Program-made: the position numbers and the translations under genes
Notes under the pieces: generated by a model
Database searches by the model: none
The model's input: the letters and a program-made list of their open reading frames with translations, nothing else
What the model was told of the DNA's origin: nothing
Assembly: GCA_031285625.1 (NCBI GenBank)
Contig: JAITVV010000095.1
Coordinates: 128,001 to 192,000 of the forward strand
Direction of reading: 5' to 3'
Length of the DNA stretch: 64,000 bases
DNA from: Prevotella sp.
Lineage (GTDB): Bacteria; Bacteroidota; Bacteroidia; Bacteroidales; Dysgonomonadaceae
In this document: in pieces, positions 463-16,930 of the stretch
Layout: the number at the start of each line of letters is the position of its first letter
Numbering within the stretch: position 1 is the stretch's first letter

Positions 463-1617
463 TTACTCATAGTATATAAAATGCCGTTCTACATAAGGGC
501 GGATAATCTGAACTAATCCGCTGGGACGCCCCATACCAAGCTGTACAAAGTCTTCAAACTTCTTAATCTCTGTCCAATTGCCGCAATGATCATATTTATA
601 TTTATCAATATCTTCTTCTATAATTTCAAATCCTGGGAAAGCTTCCTTGTTTACAATTAATGTTCCCTTTGTATCATATTCTTCCACTACTTTAGAGTTC
701 TTTAGCACATAATGCAGAGTTGAATCCGGATAATATCGATATTCATATTCAGCTATCAGCTCAGAATTACCTTCCTTGTCCACCTCATATTTCGAAGACA
801 AGCGTCCCTCATTATTGTATTGATAAGTATAATGGCATTCAGGAATTTTCTCACTAACCCATATTTGGTATGTTTTTTCATCAACGAGCAGATCTTTATC
901 ATTATATGTATAAATGTATCTTCTATATAAATCTACTTTATTATAGTATTCCCGTTTCTCTGTCAGCAGATTTTTATTATTATAATCATACTCGGTTAAG
1001 GCAAAAGCATGTGCCTCACTCTTGGCAAGTAATTCTGTTCTTACAAGGTTCCCTTTTTTATCATATGTATGTATGCCTCCTGATCCGGTTCTACGCTCCA
1101 GATATTTAAGTAGTCTGCCATCCTCATCATAAGTATTCAGACCTCTCTCCTCCACTCTGCCATCCCCATACCGGCAAACCTCGTCCAGGAGTTGACCATA
1201 CTTATTATATTTATATGTGATTATTTGTAACTCATCAGGATTAGTGGCCGGAATCATTTCTGTTCGTGCATGCCCCCAGTCTCCATACTCATAATCTACT
1301 TTACAAATTAAGACGCGATCGGTAGTGTACTGGTTTTGTTGCAATAAATTCCCATTTATATCAAAAACCAGCTGCAAATGATGTATCCCCTCATAATCAG
1401 ATTTATCTCCTTTTTTAAAACTGGGAGAAAATAAAGAAGTTTCCGATTTGACACTAAAATAATAGATATCCATTGTTTTCACCTTACCCTTTAGCCCCCA
1501 GTTATTTTTATCATTTGATATAGTGTCCTCTGGTTGTGGCACATAAGTTTCTGTAGTACTCTTATTACCACATCCTGATAAGAAAACAATGCAGGCTACA
1601 ATAATGAAATATCTCAT
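463..1617 (-). CDS. Lipoprotein with YD/RHS-like repeats
   Basis: Lipobox LSGC; GLKGKVK motif; repeated Y-x-Y-D/N-xxG units (YKYNKYGQ, TYDEDGR, YDKKGN, YNNEGR, YDHCGNW). Confidence 0.7.
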   Translation of the reverse strand: MRYFIIVACIVFLSGCGNKSTTETYVPQPEDTISNDKNNWGLKGKVKTMDIYYFSVKSETSLFSPSFKKGDKSDYEGIHHLQLVFDINGNLLQQNQYTTDRVLICKVDYEYGDWGHARTEMIPATNPDELQIITYKYNKYGQLLDEVCRYGDGRVEERGLNTYDEDGRLLKYLERRTGSGGIHTYDKKGNLVRTELLAKSEAHAFALTEYDYNNKNLLTEKREYYNKVDLYRRYIYTYNDKDLLVDEKTYQIWVSEKIPECHYTYQYNNEGRLSSKYEVDKEGNSELIAEYEYRYYPDSTLHYVLKNSKVVEEYDTKGTLIVNKEAFPGFEIIEEDIDKYKYDHCGNWTEIKKFEDFVQLGMGRPSGLVQIIRPYVERHFIYYE

Positions 1618-1681
1618 ATTATGAATAGTTCTGTATATAATTTAAAGGAAGGATAAAGATAAAAAATTTATTTTCAATCTT

Positions 1682-1697
1682 TGGCAAGCCTTTTGTT
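1682..1697 (+). promoter_or_regulatory. sigma54-like -24/-12 motif upstream of grpE
   Basis: TGGCAAGCCTTTTGTT; same pattern upstream of lon and the Zn-peptidase gene. Confidence 0.55.
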
Positions 1698-1794
1698 GCA
1701 TAATATTCAACAAAGAGTTACAAAGGGTAGATCATCAAGGTAGATTTATTCCAAATTCTTTTGCTATCAACTGATAATAAAATAAATATAAGAT

Positions 1795-2349
1795 ATGAAA
1801 GAGGAATTTTCTGAAAAGGATTTTGACAAAGGAGAGTTTACTGACCCGGATAATCTGACAAATAATCAGACAGAAGAGACAGCCGAAACCGAATTAAATG
1901 ACAATGTGACCGATTGGGAAGCAAAATACGGTGAGATCAATGATTCTTATCTGCGATTGAATGCTGAATTTGACAATTACCGCAAACGCACATTGAAAGA
2001 AAAAGCTGAATTGCTAAAATCTGGAAGTGAAAGGGTTCTGATAGATATAATATCTGTAGTGGATGATTTTGAACGTGCACTGGAAAACATTACCAAAACA
2101 GAAGATATAGAAGCCGTAAAAGAGGGTGTGGACCTGATTTATATCAAGTTCAAAAATTTCCTTACCAAACATGGTGTAAAAGAAATTGAAACAATAGGCC
2201 ATCCTTTCGATACAGACAGGCATGAAGCTATAACAACCATACCTGCCCAATCAGAAGAAGATAAAGACAAAATCGTGGACAGTGTACAAAAAGGATATAC
2301 ACTTGATGATAAAGTGATTCGTTATCCAAAAGTAATTGTTGCAAAATAA
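1795..2349 (+). CDS. grpE: Nucleotide exchange factor GrpE
   Basis: AEFDNYRKR, FDTDRHEA, KGYTLDDKVIR motifs; adjacent to dnaJ. Confidence 0.97.
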   Translation: MKEEFSEKDFDKGEFTDPDNLTNNQTEETAETELNDNVTDWEAKYGEINDSYLRLNAEFDNYRKRTLKEKAELLKSGSERVLIDIISVVDDFERALENITKTEDIEAVKEGVDLIYIKFKNFLTKHGVKEIETIGHPFDTDRHEAITTIPAQSEEDKDKIVDSVQKGYTLDDKVIRYPKVIVAK

Positions 2350-2367
2350 TAAAAACAGAAGATATTA

Positions 2368-3507
2368 ATGGCAACCAAACGAGACTACTACGAAGTGCTG
2401 GAAGTAAGCAAAACGGCAACTTTTGAGGAAATAAAGAAGGCATATCGTAAAAAGGCAATTCAATACCATCCTGACAAAAATCCGGACGATAAAGAATCGG
2501 AAGAAAAATTTAAAGAGGCCGCAGAAGCTTACGAGATATTAAGCGATGAGCAAAAGCGTGCAAAATATGACAGGTACGGACATGAAGCACCTGGCGGATT
2601 TGGTGGGTCTGCAGGAGGATTCTCCATGGATGATATATTCTCTCAGTTTGGAGATATATTCGGTGGACATTTTGGCGGCGGATTCGGTAGCTTTGGAGGA
2701 CAACGCGGGCCCAGACAAAACAGGGGTTCAGATCTGCGTGTCAAGGTTAAGTTGACATTAAAAGATATCGCCGCAGGTGTAGAGAAAAAAATAAAAGTTA
2801 ACAAATTTGTTTCCTGTACGCACTGTAAGGGTACGGGAGCAGATAACGGAACAGCATACGAGACCTGCTCTACCTGTAAAGGTTCAGGTGTAGTTACCCG
2901 TGTAATGAATACCATTCTGGGACAGATGCAAACACAATCTGCCTGTCCGACTTGTAATGGTGAAGGAAAAACCATAACAAAGAAATGTTCTCACTGTGCA
3001 GGTGAAGGTATTGTTCGCGAAGAAGAAGTAATCGCAATTAATATACCTGCCGGAGTTGCCGAAGGTATGCAACTTTCGATGAGTGGAAAAGGTAACGCTG
3101 CACGTCATGGAGGAATAAACGGTGACTTACTTATTGTAGTAGAAGAGGAACCACATCCGGAATTATTCAGAGACGATAATGATGTTGTATACAATCTTCT
3201 GTTAAGCGTATCCACTGCTGCTCTGGGAGGAAATGTAGTTGTACCGACAATAGACGGCAAGGTGAAAGTTTCCATAGAGCCGGGAACCCAGCCGGGAAAA
3301 GTGTTACGTCTAAAGAACAAAGGTTTGCCAAGTATCAACAGATATGGTACAGGAGACCTCCTTATCAATATAAGTGTCTACATTCCTGAGAATCTGAGTG
3401 ACAGTGAAAAAGAAACATTAACCGGGCTGGAAAATTCTCCGAATTTCCAACCTAGCAAATCAATTAAAGAAAAGATATTTGCTCATTTCCGGAAAATGTT
3501 TGACTAA
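2368..3507 (+). CDS. dnaJ: Chaperone DnaJ
   Basis: J-domain with HPD, G/F-rich linker, four CxxCxGxG repeats. Confidence 0.98.
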
Positions 3508-3530
3508 TGTTTTTGCAAAAAATATAGAAT

Positions 3531-3709
3531 AGGTTGTCTCAAAAGTAAGGTAACACTATCAAAGTCTTACTCTCTTTGTCATTGGCCCCACTTCGCTCTG
3601 CCGAACGTTGTTTCTGAATGCAATGAAGAATCCCGACCCTTCGGACACGAGATGTTTCACTCCGTTCAACATGACAAAGAGATGGTGGAAATATTTTCGA
3701 GACAAACCT
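3531..3709. repeat. Nested palindromic REP/MITE-like element, copy 1 (with 30-bp insertion)
   Basis: Outer aggttgtctc-aaaa/tttcgagacaaacct ends; inner tctttgtcat...atgacaaaga; closely matches the reverse complement of 11593..11741. Confidence 0.85.
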
Positions 3710-3774
3710 TTTAGTTATAAATCATCTGATCTTCGCCTTAAAATTCTATCTTTGAGATAATAAACTCAAGGAAT

Positions 3775-4869
3775 ATGAAAATAAAAGAGATACTACATAT
3801 TATAGAACAAATAGCCCCTCTTCCTTTGCAAGAACAATGGGATAATTGCGGTGTGCAGATAGGCGATATCACTCAGGAAGCCAAAGGAGCTATTGTATGT
3901 ATCGATGTTACCGAAGCAGTAGTAGATGAAGCCATTGCTATGGGATGCAACCTTATTATATCGCATCATCCGTTAGCTTTTCATAGCTTCAAGTCGCTCA
4001 CCGGGAAAAACTATATAGAGCGCTGTATGATAAAAGCCTGTAAACACGATATTGTAGTATATGCAGCACATACCAATCTCGACAATGCATCGGAAGGTAT
4101 AAATAATTATCTGGCAGATATGCTCAACCTCCAGCATGTAAGGATACTCGACCCACAAAAAGGAAAACTGCTTAAACTTGTTACATTTGTTCCTCATACA
4201 CATGCCGAACTCGTACGCAATACTCTATTTAGCGTAGGAGCAGGCAGTATCGGCAACTATGATTCGTGCAGTTACAATATATCAGGGGAGGGCACATTCA
4301 GAGCAGGAGATAATACTAATCCGTATGTAGGTGAAACAGGAGAACTACATACCGAGCCCGAAACACGTATCGAAGTAATACTCCCTATATATAAACAATC
4401 GGATGTACGTCGTGCTTTGATAGCTGTACACCCTTACGAAGAACCAGCTTACGATTTCTATTTACTCGAAAATACCTGGGCTAAAGCCGGAAGTGGCATA
4501 GTAGGCACTTTACCGGAAGAAATGGAAGAAGAAGACTTCCTTTATTTATTAAAAGATACTTTCCACCTGAACACCATCCAACATTCGGCACTCAGAGGAA
4601 AAGCAGTAAGAGATGTTGCAATATGCAGCGGTGCCGGGGCCTTTCTCATACCTAAAGCGATATCATACAGTGCAGACGTATTTATAACGGGTGAAGCCAA
4701 ATATAATGACTTTTATGATGTAGAAAACAAAATTCTACTCACAGTAGTAGGTCATTATGAATCTGAAATATTCACAAAGAATATATTTTTCGATATTATT
4801 TCAAAAAAATATCCTACCTTTGCGGTCTATATGTCAGGATTTGATGTGAATCCTGTAAACTATTTGTAA
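3775..4869 (+). CDS. Nif3-like dinuclear metal centre protein (YqfO type with PII-like insert)
   Basis: WDNCG, SHHP, HTNLD, HPYEEPAYD, GHYESE motifs. Confidence 0.93.
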   Translation: MKIKEILHIIEQIAPLPLQEQWDNCGVQIGDITQEAKGAIVCIDVTEAVVDEAIAMGCNLIISHHPLAFHSFKSLTGKNYIERCMIKACKHDIVVYAAHTNLDNASEGINNYLADMLNLQHVRILDPQKGKLLKLVTFVPHTHAELVRNTLFSVGAGSIGNYDSCSYNISGEGTFRAGDNTNPYVGETGELHTEPETRIEVILPIYKQSDVRRALIAVHPYEEPAYDFYLLENTWAKAGSGIVGTLPEEMEEEDFLYLLKDTFHLNTIQHSALRGKAVRDVAICSGAGAFLIPKAISYSADVFITGEAKYNDFYDVENKILLTVVGHYESEIFTKNIFFDIISKKYPTFAVYMSGFDVNPVNYL

Positions 4870-4986
4870 TCAAGTGGTGATATACTCCCTCTAATTACGG
4901 ATGTAGTAAGAAGATAGTTGATACTATTTGATTACTGCATTTTTTTATAAATAACAATCTAAACAATCTATTTAATAAAAATTCTT

Positions 4987-5739
4987 ATGGCTAAGAAACA
5001 GGAAAAAGAAATTACTGTAGAGGAAAAGCTAAAAACACTTTATGCCCTGCAACAGAAATTATCTGAAATAGATAATATTAAAATATTACGTGGGGAGCTT
5101 CCTCTTGAGGTAGCTGACCTTGAAGATGAGATCATCGGTTTGGAAACCCGTATCAAAAAATACGAAACTGAGCTGAAAGAAGCTGATACTACTGTATCTA
5201 ATCAAAAACAAAAAGCGAAAGACAGCGAATTAAAGATTGCGAAATATAAAGAGCAGCTTGACAATGTTCGTAACAATCGCGAATTTGACCACCTTAGTAA
5301 AGAAATCGAGTTCGAAACTTTAGAAATCGAATTATCAGATAAACGCGCCCGTGAATTTACACAAGACTCTAAGAACCTGACAGAACAGATCGAAAAAAGC
5401 AAAACTTTCCTGGAAGAACGTTCTGCAGACCTGGCTCAGAAAAAAGAAGAACTGGATGGCATTGTTTCTGAAACGAAACAGCAGGAAGAGCAACTTCGCG
5501 AAGATGTAAAAAATATAGAAGCAGAAGTTGAGCCTCGTCTTTTGACAGCATTCAAAAGAATCCGTAAAAGCGCACGCAACGGTCTGGCCGTAGTCATGAT
5601 CGAACGTGGTGCATGTGGAGGTTGTTTCAATAAAATCCCACCACAAAAACAAATGGATATCAAGATTGGTAAGAAAATCATTGTTTGCGAATATTGCGGA
5701 CGTATCATGATAGATCCTGAACTTATAGGAGCGCAATAA
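4987..5739 (+). CDS. Coiled-coil protein with C4 zinc ribbon (DUF164/CT398-like)
   Basis: Long coiled coil followed by CGGC...CEYCGRI; usual partner of Nif3 genes. Confidence 0.9.
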   Translation: MAKKQEKEITVEEKLKTLYALQQKLSEIDNIKILRGELPLEVADLEDEIIGLETRIKKYETELKEADTTVSNQKQKAKDSELKIAKYKEQLDNVRNNREFDHLSKEIEFETLEIELSDKRAREFTQDSKNLTEQIEKSKTFLEERSADLAQKKEELDGIVSETKQQEEQLREDVKNIEAEVEPRLLTAFKRIRKSARNGLAVVMIERGACGGCFNKIPPQKQMDIKIGKKIIVCEYCGRIMIDPELIGAQ

Positions 5740-5768
5740 TCCTGATCAAAATAAACTCCATTATAGCT

Positions 5769-5807
5769 AATCGGAAAGGTTAAAAACGATCTTTCCGATT
5801 ATTTTTT
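5769..5807 (+). terminator. Intrinsic terminator
   Basis: aatcggaaag/ctttccgatt stem followed by a T-tract. Confidence 0.7.
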
Positions 5808-5860
5808 GTACTTTTCTGTAAACTTTATTTTATCTATTTTGTTATCCTTTAAATTCACCG

Positions 5861-5946
5861 AAAAATAAAATGGAAAACTTTTTCTATTTCATAAAAATTT
5901 AAATATCACATTTTCAATTAATTAAAAAATAAAATGGAAAACTTTT
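5861..5946. repeat. Two identical 22-bp direct repeats upstream of nrdJ
   Basis: aaaaataaaatggaaaactttt at 5861-5882 and 5925-5946. Confidence 0.75.
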
Positions 5947-6064
5947 ACTTTTGTTGATAAAATTTTATTGTAAAATTTGCTTGATCTATACATATTGACT
6001 AATATTGTACTAGGAACAGACACACATCTTACAGAAGAATTAAATATCTAAAATATAAGAACAA

Positions 6065-8608
6065 ATGACACAGAAGGTTTACACTTTTGATGAGGCATAT
6101 ACCGCCGCATTAGACTACTTTAACGGCGATGAACTTGCCGCCAAAGTATGGGTAAATAAGTATGCACTAAAAGACGCAACCGGTAATATCTATGAACAAT
6201 CGCCCGAAGATATGCACTGGCGTTTAGCCAACGAAATAGGCCGTATAGAAGCCAAATACAAAAACGGGCTTACGAGTAAAGAATTATATGATCTTTTCGA
6301 TCATTTCAAATATATCGTGCCTCAAGGCAGCCCTATGACGGGTATCGGAAATAATTTTCAGGTAGCGTCATTATCCAATTGCTTTGTAATAGGAATGGAT
6401 GGCCCATCAGACTCTTACGGCGCTATCATCCGTGTTGACGAAGAACAAGTACAGCTTATGAAACGCCGTGGAGGAGTAGGACATGACTTGTCTCACATCC
6501 GCCCGAAAGGCTCTCCTGTTAAAAATTCAGCCCTTACTTCTACCGGACTGGTTCCTTTTATGGAAAGATATTCTAATTCAACCCGCGAAGTTGCCCAGGA
6601 TGGCCGTCGTGGTGCATTAATGTTAAGTGTATCTGTAAAACATCCCGACTCGGAATCGTTCATCGATGCCAAAATGATAGAAGGCAAAGTTACCGGAGCC
6701 AATGTTTCGGTAAGGATAGACGATGCCTTTATGCAAGCCGTTGTAGACGGAACACCATATACTCAGCAATACCCTATCGATTCCGATAATCCGACTACCG
6801 TAAGAGAAACCGATGCTACCGACTTATGGAAAAAAATCGTTCATAATGCATGGAAATCAGCAGAGCCAGGAGTATTGTTCTGGGATACTATCATACGGGA
6901 ATCTGTGCCAGACTGTTATGCCGATCTCGGTTTTAAAACGATATCTACAAATCCATGCGGCGAAATTCCGCTTTGCCCATACGACAGTTGCCGACTATTG
7001 GCAATCAACTTATATTCTTATGTGATAAATCCATTCAAAGAAGATGCATACTTTGATTTCGAACTCTTCAAAAAACATGTTGCATTAGCTCAACGAATAA
7101 TGGATGACATCATCGATCTGGAAACAGAAAAGATCGATAAGATTCTACAAAAGATAAATGATGACCCTGAAACAGAAGAAGTAAAATGGCCGGAAAGACA
7201 CCTATGGGAAAAGATCCGCACCAAAACACTTCAAGGCCGCCGTACAGGAGTAGGCATCACTGCCGAAGGGGATATGATAGCTGCGATGGGCCTTCGCTAT
7301 GGTACAGAAGAAGCTACAGCATTAGCAGAAGAAGTACATCGTACACTTGCTATTGCTGCCTACCGCTCATCTGTAGAGATGGCCAAAGAACGTGGGGCTT
7401 TTGAAGTATTTGATTTCAAACGTGAAAAGAATAATCCTTTCATCAATCGCCTGGCAGAAGTTGATCCTCAGCTATACAAAGACATGGAGAAATACGGCCG
7501 CCGCAATATAGCATGTCTTACTGTAGCACCGACAGGAACAACCAGCCTTATGACTCAGTCTACATCCGGTATAGAGCCGGTATTCCTGCCTGTATATAAA
7601 CGTCGCCGCAAGGTAAACCCTAATGATAAAGAAGTAAGGGTTGACTTTATAGATGAGAACGGAGACTCATGGGAAGAATATGTTGTATTCCACCATAAGT
7701 TTGTTACATGGATGGAGAGTAAAGGATATCCTACAGCAAAGAGATATACAAATGAAGAAATAGATGCAATGGTAGCTGAATCACCTTATTACAAAGCCAC
7801 ATCAAACGATGTAGATTGGCTGCAAAAGGTGAAAATGCAGGGACGCATCCAAAAATGGGTGGATCACTCTATCAGTGTCACAATCAATCTTCCGGCTGAT
7901 GTTTCTGAAGATCTTGTAAATCAACTCTATATAGAGGCATGGAAGAGCGGATGTAAAGGATGTACCGTTTATCGTGACGGATCACGCGCAGGGGTTCTTA
8001 TAGCCAACGATAGCAAAAAAGAAGACGAAGAATGCGGAGACTGCTATGAACGTCCTCAAATAGTAATGGAACGTCCACGCGAGTTAGTAGCAGATGTAAT
8101 CAAATTCCAAAATAACAAAGAAAAATGGATCGCATTTATCGGCTTACTGGACGGACGTCCGTATGAAATCTTTACCGGACTATCCGACGATGATGAAGGT
8201 CTTGTATTGCCTAAGAACGTAAACCATGGAACGATCATAAAAACGATGAACGACGAAGGCCAGCGTTCTTATGACTTCCAGTTTAAAAATAAGAGAGGCT
8301 ATAAAACAACTATTGAAGGCCTGAATGGTAAATTCAACCCTGAATTCTGGAACTATGCCAAGCTTATATCAGGAGTACTTCGCTACGGAATGCCTATCGA
8401 TCAGGTTGTAAAACTCGTACAGGGACTGGAACTAAATAGCGAAACGATCAATACATGGAAAAATGGTGTTGAACGCGCCTTGAAAAAATACCTGCCTAAC
8501 GAGACGGAAGCAAAAGGGCAAAAATGCCCTGTGTGCGGACTGGAAACATTGATATATCAGGAAGGCTGTATGAAATGTACAAACTGTGGTGCATCGAAAT
8601 GTGGATAA
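6065..8608 (+). CDS. nrdJ: Adenosylcobalamin-dependent (class II) ribonucleotide reductase
   Basis: SNCFV, TNPCGEIPL, APTGT, GCKGCTVYRDGSR; C-terminal TSCPD-like region and CPVC/CTNC; no beta subunit gene nearby. Confidence 0.93.
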   Translation: MTQKVYTFDEAYTAALDYFNGDELAAKVWVNKYALKDATGNIYEQSPEDMHWRLANEIGRIEAKYKNGLTSKELYDLFDHFKYIVPQGSPMTGIGNNFQVASLSNCFVIGMDGPSDSYGAIIRVDEEQVQLMKRRGGVGHDLSHIRPKGSPVKNSALTSTGLVPFMERYSNSTREVAQDGRRGALMLSVSVKHPDSESFIDAKMIEGKVTGANVSVRIDDAFMQAVVDGTPYTQQYPIDSDNPTTVRETDATDLWKKIVHNAWKSAEPGVLFWDTIIRESVPDCYADLGFKTISTNPCGEIPLCPYDSCRLLAINLYSYVINPFKEDAYFDFELFKKHVALAQRIMDDIIDLETEKIDKILQKINDDPETEEVKWPERHLWEKIRTKTLQGRRTGVGITAEGDMIAAMGLRYGTEEATALAEEVHRTLAIAAYRSSVEMAKERGAFEVFDFKREKNNPFINRLAEVDPQLYKDMEKYGRRNIACLTVAPTGTTSLMTQSTSGIEPVFLPVYKRRRKVNPNDKEVRVDFIDENGDSWEEYVVFHHKFVTWMESKGYPTAKRYTNEEIDAMVAESPYYKATSNDVDWLQKVKMQGRIQKWVDHSISVTINLPADVSEDLVNQLYIEAWKSGCKGCTVYRDGSRAGVLIANDSKKEDEECGDCYERPQIVMERPRELVADVIKFQNNKEKWIAFIGLLDGRPYEIFTGLSDDDEGLVLPKNVNHGTIIKTMNDEGQRSYDFQFKNKRGYKTTIEGLNGKFNPEFWNYAKLISGVLRYGMPIDQVVKLVQGLELNSETINTWKNGVERALKKYLPNETEAKGQKCPVCGLETLIYQEGCMKCTNCGASKCG

Positions 8609-11592: not shown

Positions 11593-11741
11593 AGGTTGTC
11601 TAAAAGGTATTTTTTACAATCTCTTTGTCATGTTGAACGGAGTGAAACATCTCGTGTCCGGAGGGTCGAGATTCTTCATTGCATTCAGAATGACAAAGAG
11701 AATAACACTTTGATAGTACAATTTTACTTTTGGGACAACCC
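11593..11741. repeat. Nested palindromic REP/MITE-like element, copy 2
   Basis: aggttgtc-taaaag...cttttgggacaacc outer ends; ctctttgtcat...atgacaaagag inner palindrome; between convergent genes. Confidence 0.85.
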
Positions 11742-11750
11742 CCTTTTTTA

Positions 11751-14036
11751 TTATATCGAACTTATTTTCAAACCTATAAAGAAAGTACGTGGTAATGATG
11801 GGCCATAAATATATTCCGAATCCCTGTCAGGCCCTTTATCATAATCTTTTTGTACCTGATTGAACATATTCTGTATCCCGCCATTGATCTCTACTTTATT
11901 TATAGCATTCAGGTTAAAGAAATAAGAAAGCTTCAATGTCATATCCATAAAACTACGTGTTTTAACAGTTTCGTCAAGCTCTATACCTTCTGCTCCGGCA
12001 AAGTGAGGTGTCAACATAGAGCCGGTATACACACCCGAAAGAGAGACTGCATAACTCTTATTCGGTATTGCTGTTGCCGAGAAGAATCCGTAAGTATCAG
12101 GTGAGCGAAGCATTTTCTTCACAGGTTTTACATAAGATTCTGATGACCAGTTTACAGGCTCAGTATATCTGCTCCGTTGCCATGTAAAACCACCTTGTAA
12201 TTCGAGCCAGTCTATAGGCTGAACAGTAGTCTCCAGATTCAGCCCATATACATAGGCACCATCACCATTCTTTCGTGTCATTATCGTATTCCCCATTGCA
12301 TCAGTACCGGTTTCCTCAACAATAAAAACCCTGTTTATTTTATTATAGAAACCTTCTAAAAGAAAATACGAATAGAACTTCTCATTAAACAAACTAAAAT
12401 CTATTCCTCCATTAAATGCATTCGAATATTCACGCTTCAGGTCTTCGCCCAAAACTGTAATAGTAGCATGTCCTCCAATAACGGGGATATCCAGATCTGA
12501 AGCTATAATCTCCGGAGCGCGGTATCCCATCGAGTAGGCAGCACGGAGATTCATATTTTCAGCTACTCTATACCTGATACTTCCCCGGGGAATAATATTC
12601 ATATTACTCAGTTTATTATGTTTATCACCTCTCACTCCTACTATAAGAGTAAGGTTATCGTCTCTCCATTCATTCTGCGCATAAAGGCTACTTACGTTTA
12701 CTATTTGTTTTATATTACGGCTATGAATAGTATCATGCAGATTGGTATATTCCTGTGTAAAACCTGCAGTAAACTTTGCCGGCATAAACAACAGTTTATC
12801 CATATTTACTTCATAACGCACTGTGCCCGTAGCTGCCAGCTCTGATGTGTTTCCATATCCGTTAAGATCATAACCTCCACCATAATAGCTATCTCTTGCA
12901 GTCTTTTGTATCGAACCGTTCACTGATAGTTTCCGTTTGTTATCTTCACTGGAATGAATATAACCAATCGTACCTGAATGTATTTTATAATCGGTAGTCT
13001 CGGCAATCAAGGCCTCGTGCGGAGGGCGTTTCATATTATCCCCTCCCCTTCTGTATTCAGATATATAATGATATTCTAAGGTCAGTTTATCACGCAGTGT
13101 CGGCTTTGTAAAACTACGAAAACCAACAGACGTTGCTTTATTTTTTCCTATTTCAGAAAAACCGTCATCATTGGCATCCCATGGATTACGATGACGCATA
13201 TTTGCGAACAAAGAGATCCCCGAAGTTTTAGTTCTGTCTACAAATGAAGAATTAAGAGATAATACATTATCTGCAGATTTACCATCTATCAGCGACATAT
13301 TATATTTCACCTGATAAGAATTCTTTTCAGGCTCTTTGGTTATTATATTTATAACCCCTCCTATCGCGTTTGCACCATAGAGCACAGAACCTCCACCACG
13401 TATAACCTCTACTTGCTCTATCATATTAGTTGGCATCTGCTCCAACCCGTACATCTTAGAAAGTGACGTGAAAACTGCCTGACCATCGATCAGCATCTGG
13501 GAATACTGCCCCTCAAGTCCGTTTATCCTTACTTCCTGCGTCCCACAGTTCTGACAATTAGTTTCCACCCTCAGTCCGGGCATATAATTCAATCCCTGAG
13601 ATAAAGAAACCGAGTTTGTGGCTTCAAACGTTTTGGTTGTTAACTCATTTACTACCACCGGAGAAATCTTTCTATTCAGCGACCTCAACGATGCTGTAAC
13701 AGCAACTTCCCCCAATTGCTGATTTTCGGGTTCGATGTACATAGTGACGTTTCGGGTAGCATTCTTGCCTATTATTACTTCCTGCCTCAAAGGAGAGTAG
13801 CCGATATATTGTGTTACCAGGATATATGTTCCTGCTGCAATACCATCCAGCGAGAAGTGTCCTGTCTCATCAGTAACAGTTGCGTATTGAGTTTTATCGA
13901 TATATACTGTAACACCGGGCAGGTGTTCTTCTGTTTGTCCGTCTAGTACATGACCTTTAATTGACGAGGTATTAGCTTGTGCATAAGCACCAACGGCTAA
14001 TAATATATTGAATGATAAAAGTATAAGCTTTTTCAT
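11751..14036 (-). CDS. TonB-dependent receptor with N-terminal CarboxypepD_reg-like domain, putative metal uptake
   Basis: Signal peptide; plug motifs IEQVEVIRGGGSVLYGANAIGGVINIITK; CQNC (CxxC) in plug; C-terminal YIYGPSLPRTFFIG beta strand. Confidence 0.92.
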   Translation of the reverse strand: MKKLILLSFNILLAVGAYAQANTSSIKGHVLDGQTEEHLPGVTVYIDKTQYATVTDETGHFSLDGIAAGTYILVTQYIGYSPLRQEVIIGKNATRNVTMYIEPENQQLGEVAVTASLRSLNRKISPVVVNELTTKTFEATNSVSLSQGLNYMPGLRVETNCQNCGTQEVRINGLEGQYSQMLIDGQAVFTSLSKMYGLEQMPTNMIEQVEVIRGGGSVLYGANAIGGVINIITKEPEKNSYQVKYNMSLIDGKSADNVLSLNSSFVDRTKTSGISLFANMRHRNPWDANDDGFSEIGKNKATSVGFRSFTKPTLRDKLTLEYHYISEYRRGGDNMKRPPHEALIAETTDYKIHSGTIGYIHSSEDNKRKLSVNGSIQKTARDSYYGGGYDLNGYGNTSELAATGTVRYEVNMDKLLFMPAKFTAGFTQEYTNLHDTIHSRNIKQIVNVSSLYAQNEWRDDNLTLIVGVRGDKHNKLSNMNIIPRGSIRYRVAENMNLRAAYSMGYRAPEIIASDLDIPVIGGHATITVLGEDLKREYSNAFNGGIDFSLFNEKFYSYFLLEGFYNKINRVFIVEETGTDAMGNTIMTRKNGDGAYVYGLNLETTVQPIDWLELQGGFTWQRSRYTEPVNWSSESYVKPVKKMLRSPDTYGFFSATAIPNKSYAVSLSGVYTGSMLTPHFAGAEGIELDETVKTRSFMDMTLKLSYFFNLNAINKVEINGGIQNMFNQVQKDYDKGPDRDSEYIYGPSLPRTFFIGLKISSI

Positions 14037-14212
14037 GTTAAATATAATGTATGTAAAACAAATACACCAAGTATCTATCCTACAAAGATATGTGGCAGCA
14101 CAAACCCAAGAAAAAATTGTGTCGCCTTAATAATTTATACGAATAAGGGTTGATTACGGGAATGTAATCAACAACAAAAATCGGGTCTCGAAATAAGAGA
14201 CAGATTTCAAAC

Positions 14213-14593
14213 TTATAAAACTGAAAAAGGTGGTGCCCTATGGTTGAAGTAACATATAGCAGGAGGTATAATGTCCTTTAAGATAACCTGCTTATATGTA
14301 ATCTTGAGCTGAGGCATAATCATTGCCTCAAAGCTATTTTCTACCGCTTCGAAAGATGCAGTATTAGATAATTGATTGAATGTAAAGAAACCGGCCGATG
14401 TATGGTGATGCGTCTCAAATGGAGGTTGCTTATTATCATCAGCTTCCTTGGCTAGTTTTTTATATGGATGGGAATGTACATAAATAACGCCATTGTATAT
14501 ATGGCTATGTACATAATAAGAAACACAGCCGAAATATCCTATATATAACAGGAGCAATATTCCGGCTGTGTATTTTATTTTATTGGCTGACAT
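14213..14593 (-). CDS. His-rich membrane-anchored leader protein with C-terminal RAPP motif (putative ribosome arrest peptide)
   Basis: N-terminal hydrophobic helix; HSH...VHSHPY...THHH; ends NH-RAPP-FSVL; directly upstream of the TonB receptor. Confidence 0.75.
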   Translation of the reverse strand: MSANKIKYTAGILLLLYIGYFGCVSYYVHSHIYNGVIYVHSHPYKKLAKEADDNKQPPFETHHHTSAGFFTFNQLSNTASFEAVENSFEAMIMPQLKITYKQVILKDIIPPAICYFNHRAPPFSVL

Positions 14594-14619
14594 CGAATCA
14601 GTCTTTATTTATCTTTTTG

Positions 14620-16026
14620 TCAGTACTGGCTATTATAGTTACTGAATATTAGTCCCATCTTCATATTTTCTTCATCAGTTCTGAGTACTGCAGATGTAGG
14701 GCTCATCTGATTATATACATTTGTATATGCATAATATGAAGATCCCGAACTTGATGTTGCCTGCTGATATTTAGTAGAGATAGGTATTACCAGATATGTA
14801 AGATCAGGTATATTATCCTTACCCTTATATTCATCCATATAATAATTTATCATGTTGGCAATATTAGTGGAAGTCCCACCTACCACATTACTATAAGTAA
14901 AATTATATGTATTTGTAGATGATGACAGTTCCATAATAAAACTGGTCTTGGCATCCGGCATTTTCTTATTCAGGAAGAAGTTGTTCAACGAATCCCGATT
15001 AATAAATAATAATGTAGTAGACCTGCCTAAATTAGATTTCTCTTCCTCTTCTGTATATCCTTTAATTTTAAAGTTTGCTGCATTCAGCTTATTATTCTTT
15101 TTACCAGAATCGGCAGCTTTTTTCATTATCTCACCCAATGGAATAGTCAACTCGGTGCAGACTCCGGCAGGACTCTTCAGGTAAGTACGGGTATCAGCAT
15201 TTGTAAATAAATTATCAGGAATTGAATTTTGTATATGATTCATCTGAATAACCTCTGGTGTCACTGTCAGCCTGAATAAGCCTACACGTGTAGAATCGGC
15301 TGTATCGGCAACATTACGGCCTGTATATTTCAGATAAATACGAAGTACGGTGGTATTTATACTCAATAAACTACCGGTACCGAAGCTATTTGTAACATAA
15401 ATCCCTTTAAAGAACTCTTTTAATGTTTCAGAATTCTTAAATGTAGCACCTTTTGAGTTTACCCATTCATCATAAAATTCCTGTCCGAGAGACCGGTCAG
15501 TTCTCAATAAGAAACTTCTCAACCCACTCGAAGCCGGGGTATCTTGTATAGTAAATACACCTTGCCCTAGTGGTTTGGACATATCACAATATTTCTTAGG
15601 ATCCACGTTGGTGAAGAAGTTCGATTTTAAAGGTTGAGTTACCCGGTAAGCAGAAATACCAAAAGGAGATATACTATCGCCTATAAATTGCTCGGAGATA
15701 ACTTCGATGAATGCTGAATCTATTGACAGGGTTTTATCCGGGAAAGTGGCATTTTCAGGACAATATAGTTCACTCAGATAATCTGAACTAACTTTTCCAA
15801 ATACAGGATCAGTGTAATTCCCCAATAAAGCCCATTCAGTACGGGCATATACCGAATCTTTCATTGAGACTGTTTTCGCTTTTATCAGAACGGTATCAAT
15901 AGATAATCCTATGCCATCACCATCCGGCTGTATTGAATTTCCTACCTGATTAATATCATCATCACACGCAACAAAAACGATCATTAAGATTGCAATTGCA
16001 AGATTCAGTAGTGCTTTAATTTTCAT
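14620..16026 (-). CDS. DUF4270 family lipoprotein
   Basis: Lipobox FVAC-DDD; LLGNYTDPVFG and FFKGIYV motifs; usual neighbour of the glycogen synthase-domain gene in Bacteroidota. Confidence 0.82.
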   Translation of the reverse strand: MKIKALLNLAIAILMIVFVACDDDINQVGNSIQPDGDGIGLSIDTVLIKAKTVSMKDSVYARTEWALLGNYTDPVFGKVSSDYLSELYCPENATFPDKTLSIDSAFIEVISEQFIGDSISPFGISAYRVTQPLKSNFFTNVDPKKYCDMSKPLGQGVFTIQDTPASSGLRSFLLRTDRSLGQEFYDEWVNSKGATFKNSETLKEFFKGIYVTNSFGTGSLLSINTTVLRIYLKYTGRNVADTADSTRVGLFRLTVTPEVIQMNHIQNSIPDNLFTNADTRTYLKSPAGVCTELTIPLGEIMKKAADSGKKNNKLNAANFKIKGYTEEEEKSNLGRSTTLLFINRDSLNNFFLNKKMPDAKTSFIMELSSSTNTYNFTYSNVVGGTSTNIANMINYYMDEYKGKDNIPDLTYLVIPISTKYQQATSSSGSSYYAYTNVYNQMSPTSAVLRTDEENMKMGLIFSNYNSQY

Positions 16027-16066
16027 TCAAAATTAATGGTTTAATTAAATTGGGTTCAAATATCAT

Positions 16067-16104
16067 AAAAAATGCTGTTCTCATGAAATAAAACAGCATT
16101 TTTA
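16067..16104. terminator. Inverted repeat between the glycogen synthase-like gene and DUF4270
   Basis: aaaaatgctgtt/aacagcattttt. Confidence 0.55.
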
Positions 16105-16123: not shown

Positions 16124-16930
16124 TTAAAGATTCTCGTAAAAATTATTGATCGCATCAACAGAATTTTCTAAATCTCCCTGATAAGAAAGGAAATTCTTCC
16201 CTGATTTATTCACATAATCAAGTACGTTCTGGTTGACAGAATCTTCACTCTGTATAACTCCATCAGCATGTTTAACTGCAAAATTAGAAAGAGTTTCGTA
16301 ATCCACAATACCTTTTAGTTCTGCTATATCTTTATCTTTTATCCCGTCAAACTTTAGTTTTTCGATAAACTTGTCGCTGAAAGGTTGTTTGAAATCATCG
16401 TTATATAAAGAATAAACTACCTTTGAATTCTTGAAACAAGGATCATCTGCATAAGCAGCCTTGATGTATAGCCCGGTAAGGGCAGTCATCCAACCATGGC
16501 AATCTATCACGTCCGGTATCCAGCGAAGTTTCTTTATTGTTTCCAATACTCCCCTTACATAAAAGATACTACGTTCGTCATTATCTTTAAACTCTACATC
16601 ATTATCGTCTGCAATAGTATGCTTACGTTTAAAATAATCATCGTTATCTATGAAGTAGATCTGCATTCTTGCAGCTTGTATAGATGCTACTTTAATAATT
16701 AGAGGATGATCTGTATCATCAATAATAAGATTCATTCCGGATAAGCGAATAACCTCGTGTAGTTGGTTTCTCCGTTCATTGATGCTTCCAAACTTTGGCA
16801 TGAAAGTCCTTATTTCTTGTCCTTTTTCTTGTATAGCTTGTGGTAAGTATCTACAATTTGTCGCAACTGGTGAATCTGGTAAATAAGGAGTAATCTCCTG
16901 TGTGATGTATAAAACTTTTTTTGTGCCCAT
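16124..16930 (-). CDS. Glycogen/starch synthase catalytic-domain protein (GT5 N-terminal domain only)
   Basis: EIRTFMPKFGSINERRNQLHEVIRLSG and PDVIDCHGW; 268 aa, lacks the second Rossmann domain. Confidence 0.88.
   Translation of the reverse strand: MGTKKVLYITQEITPYLPDSPVATNCRYLPQAIQEKGQEIRTFMPKFGSINERRNQLHEVIRLSGMNLIIDDTDHPLIIKVASIQAARMQIYFIDNDDYFKRKHTIADDNDVEFKDNDERSIFYVRGVLETIKKLRWIPDVIDCHGWMTALTGLYIKAAYADDPCFKNSKVVYSLYNDDFKQPFSDKFIEKLKFDGIKDKDIAELKGIVDYETLSNFAVKHADGVIQSEDSVNQNVLDYVNKSGKNFLSYQGDLENSVDAINNFYENL

Follow-up and report, generated by a model that had tools for sequence, protein, structure and literature searches.

A histidine-rich small protein ending in RAPP upstream of a TonB-dependent receptor gene: a candidate metal-sensing arrest leader in Bacteroidota

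The window analysed here, a stretch of 64,000 nucleotides (nt) of Prevotella sp. DNA from contig JAITVV010000095.1, carries on its minus strand a small open reading frame (ORF) of 126 amino acids (aa), here called the leader (14213..14593 including the stop codon), and downstream of it the gene of a TonB-dependent receptor of 761 aa (11751..14036). The stop codon of the leader and the ATG of the receptor are separated by 176 nt (14037-14212). Both genes and all elements given below for leader, spacer and receptor of the window lie on the minus strand. The leader, delimited from the ORF list and the DNA together with its homologs, reads MSANKIKYTAGILLLLYIGYFGCVSYYVHSHIYNGVIYVHSHPYKK...PFETHHHTSAGFF...CYFNHRAPPFSVL up to its stop codon. 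An AlphaFold2 model and hydropathy predict an N-terminal signal-anchor helix (residues 3-26, 14516..14587) in N-in/C-out orientation, with a Kyte-Doolittle maximum of 1.71 over 19 residues. The first histidine domain (residues 28-44, VHSHIYNGVIYVHSHPY, 14462..14512), a predicted beta-hairpin with an NG turn, carries H29-S-H31 and H40-S-H42. A second histidine motif, PFETHHH (residues 58-64, 14402..14422), is defined by conservation and contains H62-H63-H64. A leader-internal spacer of variable sequence and fixed length (residues 65-118, 14240..14401) then leads to the conserved sequence RAPP (residues 119-122, 14228..14239), a candidate ribosome-arrest motif, which is followed by the four codons of the tail FSVL and the stop codon TAA (14213..14227). 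A CxxC motif is absent from the 126 residues, and neither a Pfam family at E<=0.1 nor an NCBIfam model matched the leader.

The receptor is defined by its Pfam domains CarbopepD_reg_2 (1.4e-21), Plug (PF07715, 9.8e-22) and TonB_dep_Rec_b-barrel (PF00593, 2.3e-24), and no NCBIfam model reached its cut-off. Within the plug it carries the motif C161-Q-N-C164-G (residues 161-165, 13542..13556). This cysteine pair aligns with positions 58-61 of BtuB in chain numbering, inside the stretch qnggsgq, which in the BtuB structures is an apical plug loop facing the ligand. A sequence-only reading of this DNA had described a 126-aa ORF with an anchor helix, two HSH motifs and HHH, and RAPP four codons before the stop, 176 nt upstream of a co-oriented TonB receptor with CQNC in its plug; sequence, coordinates and Pfam matches bear out this description.

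The leader belongs to a previously undescribed Bacteroidota family without a Pfam or NCBIfam model. A word-indexed search retrieved 38 close homologs which, if named at all, are called 'hypothetical protein' from Dysgonomonas. Their RAPP columns hardly vary (conservation of at least 90%), and the sole sequence noticed without RAPP is a 74-aa fragment (P0036) that lacks its C-terminus. A full HMMER scan of 1.84 billion cluster representatives returned 194 proteins at E<=1e-3, and a profile search of 5.8 billion clusters returned 477 at E<=1e-5. Among the matches listed from the latter, all 120 were devoid of Pfam domains, and those that bear a name are 'hypothetical' proteins of Bacteroidetes, Bacteroidales or Bacteroidia. 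The family was present in 16 of 401 sampled Bacteroidota genomes and in 16 of the 81 genomes of the same taxonomic family. A chance ORF was considered and rejected in view of the homologs, the family clusters and the rarity of the R[AG]PP ending: throughout the genome, only two of 12,335 six-frame ORFs of 50-220 aa contain R[AG]PP within their last 16 residues, one of them being the leader. R.PP occurs in this position in 13 ORFs, just three of which resemble real proteins.

Conservation of the arrest-like ending extends across the family. The 150 representatives among the matches listed from the HMMER scan, which were not selected for the motif, contain 96 RAPP, 28 RGPP, 5 RPPP, 3 RSPP and 1 RDPP sequences within the last 15 residues, i.e. 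R(A/G)PP in 124 of 150. The 17 without an ending of the R-x-PP type include several with RAP[T/S/G/A] and several that seem truncated or frameshifted. The pattern HxH...G...H[SA]H was found in 138 and the second HxH in 141 of these 150 proteins; CxxC occurred in four. For residue-level statistics we aligned 111 of 149 representatives (100-135 aa, R[AG]PP 1-12 residues from the end) with the window protein. The resulting alignment of 112 sequences, A2, is thus pre-selected for R[AG]PP, the other 38 representatives having been left out. H40, R119, P121 and P122 are invariant in A2; H29, H31, G35, H42, P43, H62 and H64 are conserved to at least 90%, and all six histidines are present in 100 of 112 members. 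No convincing Pfam match was obtained for any of the 112 (best E = 0.0038, weak matches scattered). An independent set of 112 new proteins from the profile search, taken without motif selection, ended in R[AG]PP in 109 cases. H64 was present in all 109 RAPP-bearing proteins of this set. H62 was substituted in 36 of the 112, leaving all six histidines in 76, so that the firm core consists of five histidines. Conservation of RAPP/RGPP and of the histidines, which the sequence-only reading had suggested examining, is therefore borne out by both collections. The tail after RAPP has a median length of 3 residues (range 1-12 in A2) and its sequence is unconserved (0.16-0.22). At position 14227 of the window, related strains in three RNA-library runs carry a 3-base insertion that adds one Ala after RAPP; the product RAPPAFSVL, identical to that of homolog P0001, has a longer tail and an intact RAPP.

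The distance between the second histidine motif and RAPP is kept as if measured by a ruler. H64 and R119 are 51-57 residues apart in the aligned columns of A2, and 54-56 in 104 of 112 members. In the independent set the distance was 55 (30 cases) or 56 (79 cases) in 109 of 109 proteins. Other distances float: H42 and H64 are separated by 8-27 residues, and the position of H29 varies from 17 to 46. The sequence of the ruler itself drifts. At positions 84-116 the mean frequency of the commonest residue fell from 0.37 among close relatives to 0.16 family-wide; for the RAPP block the same measure was 0.84 and 0.81. Judged from these alignments, fixed length combined with free sequence and RAPP near the stop codon is what would be expected of a tether linking a sensor to the peptidyl-transferase centre, and would be hard to explain for an ordinary folded protein. 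If the way through the ribosome tunnel and the SecYEG channel takes up approximately 55-57 residues, the second histidine motif would just have emerged when the ribosome reaches Pro121/Pro122.

The predicted topology would place the histidines outside the cytoplasm. The Kyte-Doolittle maximum is at least 1.6 in 91 of 112 members, and in 108 of 112 the hydrophobic segment carries more positive charge on its N-terminal than on its C-terminal flank (means +2.29 versus -0.26). The positive-inside rule thus predicts an N-in/C-out orientation, in which the histidine domain would be periplasmic. The AlphaFold2 model computed on A2 has a mean predicted local distance difference test (pLDDT) score of 76.7, with 88-96 for the helix 3-26. 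Strands 28-33 and 36-41 form a hairpin around the NG turn with its conserved Gly, followed by a loop and the helices 66-78 and 81-106. Judged from the strand register, H29, H31, H40 and H42 would lie on one face of the hairpin.

Such a model raises the question of whether the protein acts after rather than during its synthesis, i.e. as a stable small inner-membrane protein whose periplasmic histidine domain serves the receptor as a metal relay or chaperone, with RAPP only slowing its own synthesis or insertion. The defined hairpin and helices in a model of moderate confidence would suit such a protein. The conservation of the histidines, G35 and P43 resembles that of a folded metal site, and a second transmembrane (TM)-like segment is found in 51 of 112 members. 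A hypervariable stretch of 33 residues whose length is fixed to within one residue is unexpected in a stable partner, and so is a RAPP held 1-12 residues from the end. Moreover, RAPP-type motifs are reported to be strongly excluded from proteomes, arrest peptides excepted (PMC12992588). We therefore regard this alternative as rather unlikely, and the gene neighbourhood described next bears on it in both directions.

Of 20 loci with long flanks, 16 have a co-oriented gene for a receptor with CarbopepD_reg_2, Plug and barrel domains as the first gene after the leader. In two more, the receptor is the second gene, so that a receptor with a Cys-x-x-Cys plug follows the leader in 18 of 20 loci; conservation of this synteny was among the checks suggested by the sequence-only reading. 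In these last two loci a lipoprotein-like ORF of 154-160 aa without a Pfam or NCBIfam match stands between leader and receptor (L047, 3445-3906; L048, 3481-3960); their leaders are distant members with weaker matches and a different Cys/His motif that retain RAPP/RGPP. The remaining two loci comprise L037, where a CzcB-like adaptor and a CusA/CzcA pump take the place of the receptor beside an IS21 gene, and L041, whose degenerate leader contains PRASP and is read through. Among 16 smaller loci from the same taxonomic family, a receptor with a C-x-x-C plug lies downstream in 14, and the other two show no downstream ORF of at least 120 aa within their short flank. The third gene is not conserved across the 20 loci. 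In two of them (L040, 5232-5693, minus strand; L046, 5951-6421, plus strand) a thioredoxin-like (DsbH-like) gene is the immediate downstream neighbour of the receptor and may connect with the cysteine pair of the plug. This tight two-gene synteny fits a regulatory leader and a stable protein partner alike.

Leader and receptor type are also linked within one genome. The motif CQNCG occurs in two of 657 ORFs of at least 550 aa in the genome of the window, both downstream of family members. The second, paralogous pair (G000, contig C14, locus L003) consists of a leader of 121 aa (6486-6851, minus strand) ending in FFLRPPPVL, thus with RPPP instead of RAPP, and, 69 nt downstream, a 792-aa receptor with NDCQNCG (4038-6416, minus strand). 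Just upstream of this pair lies a gene for a 940-aa OMP_b-brl_3 protein. Across the sampled genomes, the exact DNA pattern CQNCG...NG was found in 19 of 401 genomes at 20 loci, with no control matches. A leader is present at eight of these loci (seven genomes), and at the other 12 hmmsearch (E<=10) detected no family ORF upstream, which speaks against a protein partner that the receptor needs. The leader-less receptors adjoin genes for PepSY_TM_like_2, Haem_bd or histidine kinase fragments. On a tree of 31 receptors, a quick maximum-likelihood tree with Shimodaira-Hasegawa-like approximate likelihood ratio test (SH-aLRT) support only, the presence of a leader required four changes compared with 9.8 in shuffles, and none of 500 shuffles was as low. 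Because the label clusters on the tree while 12 of 20 receptor loci do without it, the leader is an old but dispensable accessory of the CQNCG receptor type.

The best reading of this arrangement, by comparison with known systems, is that of a histidine-based analogue of CruR rather than a member of DUF2946. CruR from Bordetella pertussis (DUF2946, PF11162) combines CxxC with RAPP and controls a downstream TonB transporter in response to copper (PMC9426467), in keeping with what the sequence-only reading had stated. Like CruR, the leader is short, has an export signal or anchor at its N-terminus and a putative metal-ligand motif, keeps a fixed spacing from this motif to RAPP near the stop codon, and precedes the gene of a TonB-dependent transporter across a long spacer; CruR is encoded by the first gene of its operon (PMC9426467). 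The position upstream of a TonB-dependent transporter in the 18 loci is deduced here from gene order. In CruR, CXXC and RAPP are separated by 45 residues, a distance constant to 1-2 residues, and lengthening it by five residues impairs copper control (PMC9426467). Arrest of CruR at RAPP has been demonstrated in vitro (PMC12992588).

The differences from CruR are equally clear. Histidines replace CXXC, the spacing is 54-56 and not 45 residues, and the phylum is Bacteroidota; the phyla listed for DUF2946 in PMC9426467 are Proteobacteria with a few Planctomycetes, Firmicutes and Deinococcus, and no Bacteroidota. The window leader has no PF11162 match, nor has any other protein of its genome, in a search to which control genomes responded, and the families listed for the 112 members (the top 25 of 55, E<=1) do not include DUF2946. 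Together with the scarcity of CxxC in the family, these results uphold the earlier suggestion of a Bacteroidota analogue with His in place of CxxC. No PepSY_TM gene follows in the leader-bearing loci, and the CrtA/BfrG structure (PMC12914433) is absent from the 30 PDB matches listed for the window receptor. The cruR mRNA has a rut region (PMC9426467). C exceeds G in the leader mRNA at 16 of 16 loci and in the receptor mRNA at one of 16, a bias that resembles the rut region and could merely reflect amino-acid composition.

Other arrest peptides share parts of this layout. CutF from Rhodobacter capsulatus, a DUF2946 relative, has a proline repeat as its motif, not RAPP, and in this case stalling is brought about by metal and opens a stem-loop that covers the ribosome-binding site for a detoxifying oxidase (10.1101/2025.02.05.636593). 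ApdA, ApdP, the RQH family and SecM resemble the leader as small exported or membrane proteins with a C-terminal RAPP/RGPP upstream of a regulated gene (PMC10987492; PMC12992588). Unlike them, the leader precedes a TonB receptor instead of sec or yidC and carries a conserved histidine domain. A survey from 2025 found small ORFs with RAPP/RGPP upstream of TonB-dependent receptors to be enriched and universal in Gram-negative bacteria (PMC12992588), and the window locus very likely falls into this class. The survey groups its cases by motif and downstream annotation, and the available parts of its text do not describe the histidine-motif family, its ruler or the CQNCG receptor type. In our full-text literature searches these three features were likewise not described, nor was the regulation of this receptor type in Bacteroidota; the supplements and figures of PMC12992588 may list such ORFs.

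A link to metals comes from the second R[AG]PP-ending small ORF of the same genome. This ORF (locus L055 on G000 contig C35, 730-1179, plus strand) encodes a His/Cys-rich, anchored protein of 149 aa that ends in LRAPPVSYFS and matches Pfam DUF6769 (PF20558; 28.8 bits, cut-off 27). It is followed by efflux genes (1290-7001) encoding a His-rich CzcB-like adaptor of the resistance-nodulation-division (RND) type, a CusA/CzcA pump (821 bits, cut-off 701) and an outer-membrane factor. DUF6769 was detected in eight of the 401 sampled genomes, six of which, including that of the window, also carry the leader family. Bacteroides thetaiotaomicron is a carrier of DUF6769 as well. GLRAPP with 2-6 further residues forms the C-terminus of all five members inspected, each of which stands ahead of a His-rich lipoprotein. 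These sequences give DUF6769 the appearance of an arrest leader for metal efflux operons. It resembles the leader family in having an anchor at the N-terminus with a His motif right behind it (PHHHH-x-DG in DUF6769), a variable middle and a RAPP-type end. It differs in being Cys/His-rich and in preceding a CzcB-like adaptor and a CusA/CzcA pump, not a receptor. Comparison of A2 with DUF6769 by hhalign gave 87% probability over just 32 columns (TM helix and first His motif), a language-model search for look-alikes placed DUF6769 at rank 22 with a score of 0.95, and one of the 112 family members reached DUF6769 at E=0.035; the window leader had no match. Remote kinship of the two families is possible. 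The family member at L037 itself heads a CusA/CzcA-type efflux operon with a His-rich adaptor. All three plausible RAPP-type leaders of the genome precede envelope metal-transport genes. A function of DUF6769 was not described in the full-text literature searched. The paper naming DUF6769 reportedly concerns candidate effectors of the Salmonella type VI secretion system.

With a probability of roughly 55%, and on the basis of sequence conservation and analogy, we interpret the leader as a regulatory leader peptide whose nascent chain would sense periplasmic metal and set the expression of the receptor through arrest at RAPP. The N-terminal helix would insert N-in, and residues from about position 28 onwards would be threaded to the periplasmic side. 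The ribosome would then pause while Pro121 occupies the P site and Pro122 the A site, in the way demonstrated for other RAPP peptides. As the chain from the last His motif to the peptidyl-transferase centre, with its fixed 55-57 residues, would span the exit tunnel and the translocon, the whole histidine domain (H29, H31, H40, H42, H62 and H64) would be located just outside the membrane at this moment. Binding of a divalent metal might compact the domain, pull on the chain and alter the duration of the arrest. By analogy with CruR, scarcity of the metal would prolong the arrest and allow transcription or translation to continue into the receptor gene; with sufficient metal the arrest would be released, the ribosome would finish and expression of the importer would fall. 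Arrest would thus permit read-through and release would lead to termination (PMC9426467). The opposite polarity, as in CutF (10.1101/2025.02.05.636593), is possible by the same kind of comparison. The comparisons establish the family itself, the conservation of its motifs and ruler, its predicted N-in topology and its association with one receptor type; we infer that the ribosome stalls, that metal is bound, which way the response goes and how arrest would reach receptor expression, be it by Rho- or hairpin-dependent termination.

A number of observations weigh against this interpretation, some of them in the leader-receptor spacer of the window. Two terminator-like hairpins follow the leader. 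Hairpin 1, a stem of 5 base pairs (bp; GTCTC/GAGAC) followed by CCGATTTTTG (14185..14201), is present in the folds, and hairpin 2, a 9-bp stem of GTTGATTAC and GTAATCAAC (14149..14172), is conserved in Dysgonomonas. In five aligned Dysgonomonas loci hairpin 2 comprises 10 pairs, four of them with compensatory changes on both sides. The region 13900-14800 contains six terminator-like sites, compared with 0.5 expected. The spacer region also holds two matches to TAnnTTTG, the -7 promoter consensus of Bacteroides. One is TATCTTTG (14083..14090), 54 nt before the receptor ATG; the other, TAAGTTTG (14208..14215), overlaps the leader stop codon and may be due to chance. Because of these box matches and the two hairpins, independent transcription of the receptor is conceivable, and judged from the sequence the receptor could be transcribed independently of the leader at this locus. 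No TAnnTTTG box was found within 150 nt upstream of the window leader. At 7 of 17 loci such a box is present in this interval (3.9 per kb versus 0.28 per kb in the receptor coding sequence), and only the window locus among the 17 has one in the leader-receptor spacer; over the 17 loci this distribution speaks for the regulatory reading.

Taken to its conclusion, this would mean that leader and receptor are uncoupled at the window locus, with the hairpins ending the upstream transcript, the receptor transcribed from the TATCTTTG box and the leader a relic or acting elsewhere. An octamer identical to the one at 14083-14090 precedes the gene at 16930, in favour of this reading. The octamer is found at 0.69 per kb on the same strand, which amounts to a chance of about 11% for one match within 176 nt, and the four Dysgonomonas loci closest to the window (by eye) lack the box in their spacers, as do 16 of the 17 loci counted. 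Furthermore, the window leader is intact and obeys the constraints seen in other family members, and the compensatory changes in hairpin 2 fit a regulatory role as well as a terminator. Complete uncoupling therefore appears very unlikely to us; the link between leader and receptor at this locus may be partial, given the hairpins and the promoter-like box. In each of two RNA-library runs one contig extends over 11750-16100, which may derive from DNA and is no proof of a single transcript. A further run of low depth (3.7) yielded separate pieces, one of which, from 14155 to 14564, spans the leader and ends in hairpin 2, with 13751-14154 uncovered; in a single run of this depth a contig end within the hairpin is no evidence of a 3' end.

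The spacers of other loci weigh against the interpretation too. Their length ranges from 41 to 324 nt, and no structure common to the whole family was found across the loci folded. We examined unmasking of the start site by a stalled ribosome, in the style of SecM or CutF, by partition-function folding with the footprint of the stalled ribosome forced single-stranded. The mean gain in unpaired probability was +0.058 with mixed signs over 17 loci, which does not support this route. A scan of the spacer against Rfam brought no family near threshold. In the window, the codons after RAPP and the receptor start share an 8-bp complementarity that is not found in orthologs and was treated as chance. 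At the level of the proteome, RAPP is absent from large ORFs (0 versus 4.1 expected), a depletion that is nonspecific in that KAPP, AGPP and PPAR are equally depleted. The receptor does not depend on the leader, as its 12 leader-less loci demonstrate. Finally, no inner-membrane metal transporter is linked to the loci inspected and there is hence no pointer to a particular metal. Ni, Zn and Co, named in the sequence-only reading, are a guess, and Cu is an equally eligible candidate. Reading the identity of the metal from neighbouring genes was abandoned, there being no conserved third gene and no decisive neighbour.

Since about half of the family members (51 of 112) have a TM-like hydrophobic stretch in the leader-internal spacer and the window leader (maximum 0.86) does not, the trigger of release may differ among family members, a further point against the interpretation. 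Insertion forces would act where a TM-like segment sits 31-53 residues from the arrest site, as it does in these 51 proteins. This raises the alternative of an arrest peptide with a non-metal signal, responding to membrane insertion or export capacity in the manner of SecM, MifM or ApdA, or to the energy state of the envelope, with the histidines serving folding or pH sensing. In favour of this view, most RAPP peptides known so far monitor Sec or YidC (PMC10987492). Yet neither sec nor yidC ever lies downstream of the leader; of the 20 loci, 18 have a TonB receptor there and one has a CusA/CzcA pump. Second only to RAPP in conservation are five to six histidines, and the DUF6769 look-alikes are His/Cys-rich and precede metal efflux pumps. 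All this makes a signal other than metal improbable.

Both ends of the gene pair are flanked by elements of their own. The gene upstream of the leader (14620-16026, minus strand), at a distance of 26 nt, encodes a DUF4270 protein that matches NCBIfam BamH_bt below threshold (177.5 bits, cut-off 670). The order of a glycogen-synthase-like gene, the DUF4270 gene, the leader and the receptor is kept in Dysgonomonas and a sister genus. Between the stop codon of the receptor and a convergent ORF of 188 aa lies a short multi-copy element (11620-11715). Its contig depth exceeded that of the flanks by tens of times in three of four RNA-library runs and about tenfold in the fourth, with many loose contig ends, and the element looks like a dispersed repeat.

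Beyond the single locus, we tentatively consider a portable Bacteroidota module consisting of an anchor, a His or His/Cys domain, a fixed spacer and RAPP, which might read periplasmic metal from the nascent chain. Its ruler would correspond to the tunnel-plus-translocon distance and its His hairpin would act as a metal-triggered force generator, with opposite polarity for an importer (the CQNCG receptors, twice in the genome) and an exporter (DUF6769 before CzcCBA). If this speculative extension is true, Bacteroidota would possess a small translational metal regulon.

To our knowledge, metal sensing by a nascent peptide so far rests on the cysteine-based DUF2946 proteins CruR and CutF of Proteobacteria. 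If our interpretation of the leader is correct, a second, unrelated sensor domain has been combined with a RAPP end and a ruler of its own, and the principle would be general and would have evolved more than once. The difference between a ruler of 55-56 and one of 45 residues bears on the site of sensing, outside the translocon or at the ribosome exit. A function would be assigned to at least 477 'hypothetical' proteins and probably also to Pfam DUF6769, and the receptor subfamily with a Cys-x-x-Cys plug loop would receive a hint at its ligand class. In practical terms, the leader would provide Bacteroidota genetics with a compact metal-responsive switch.

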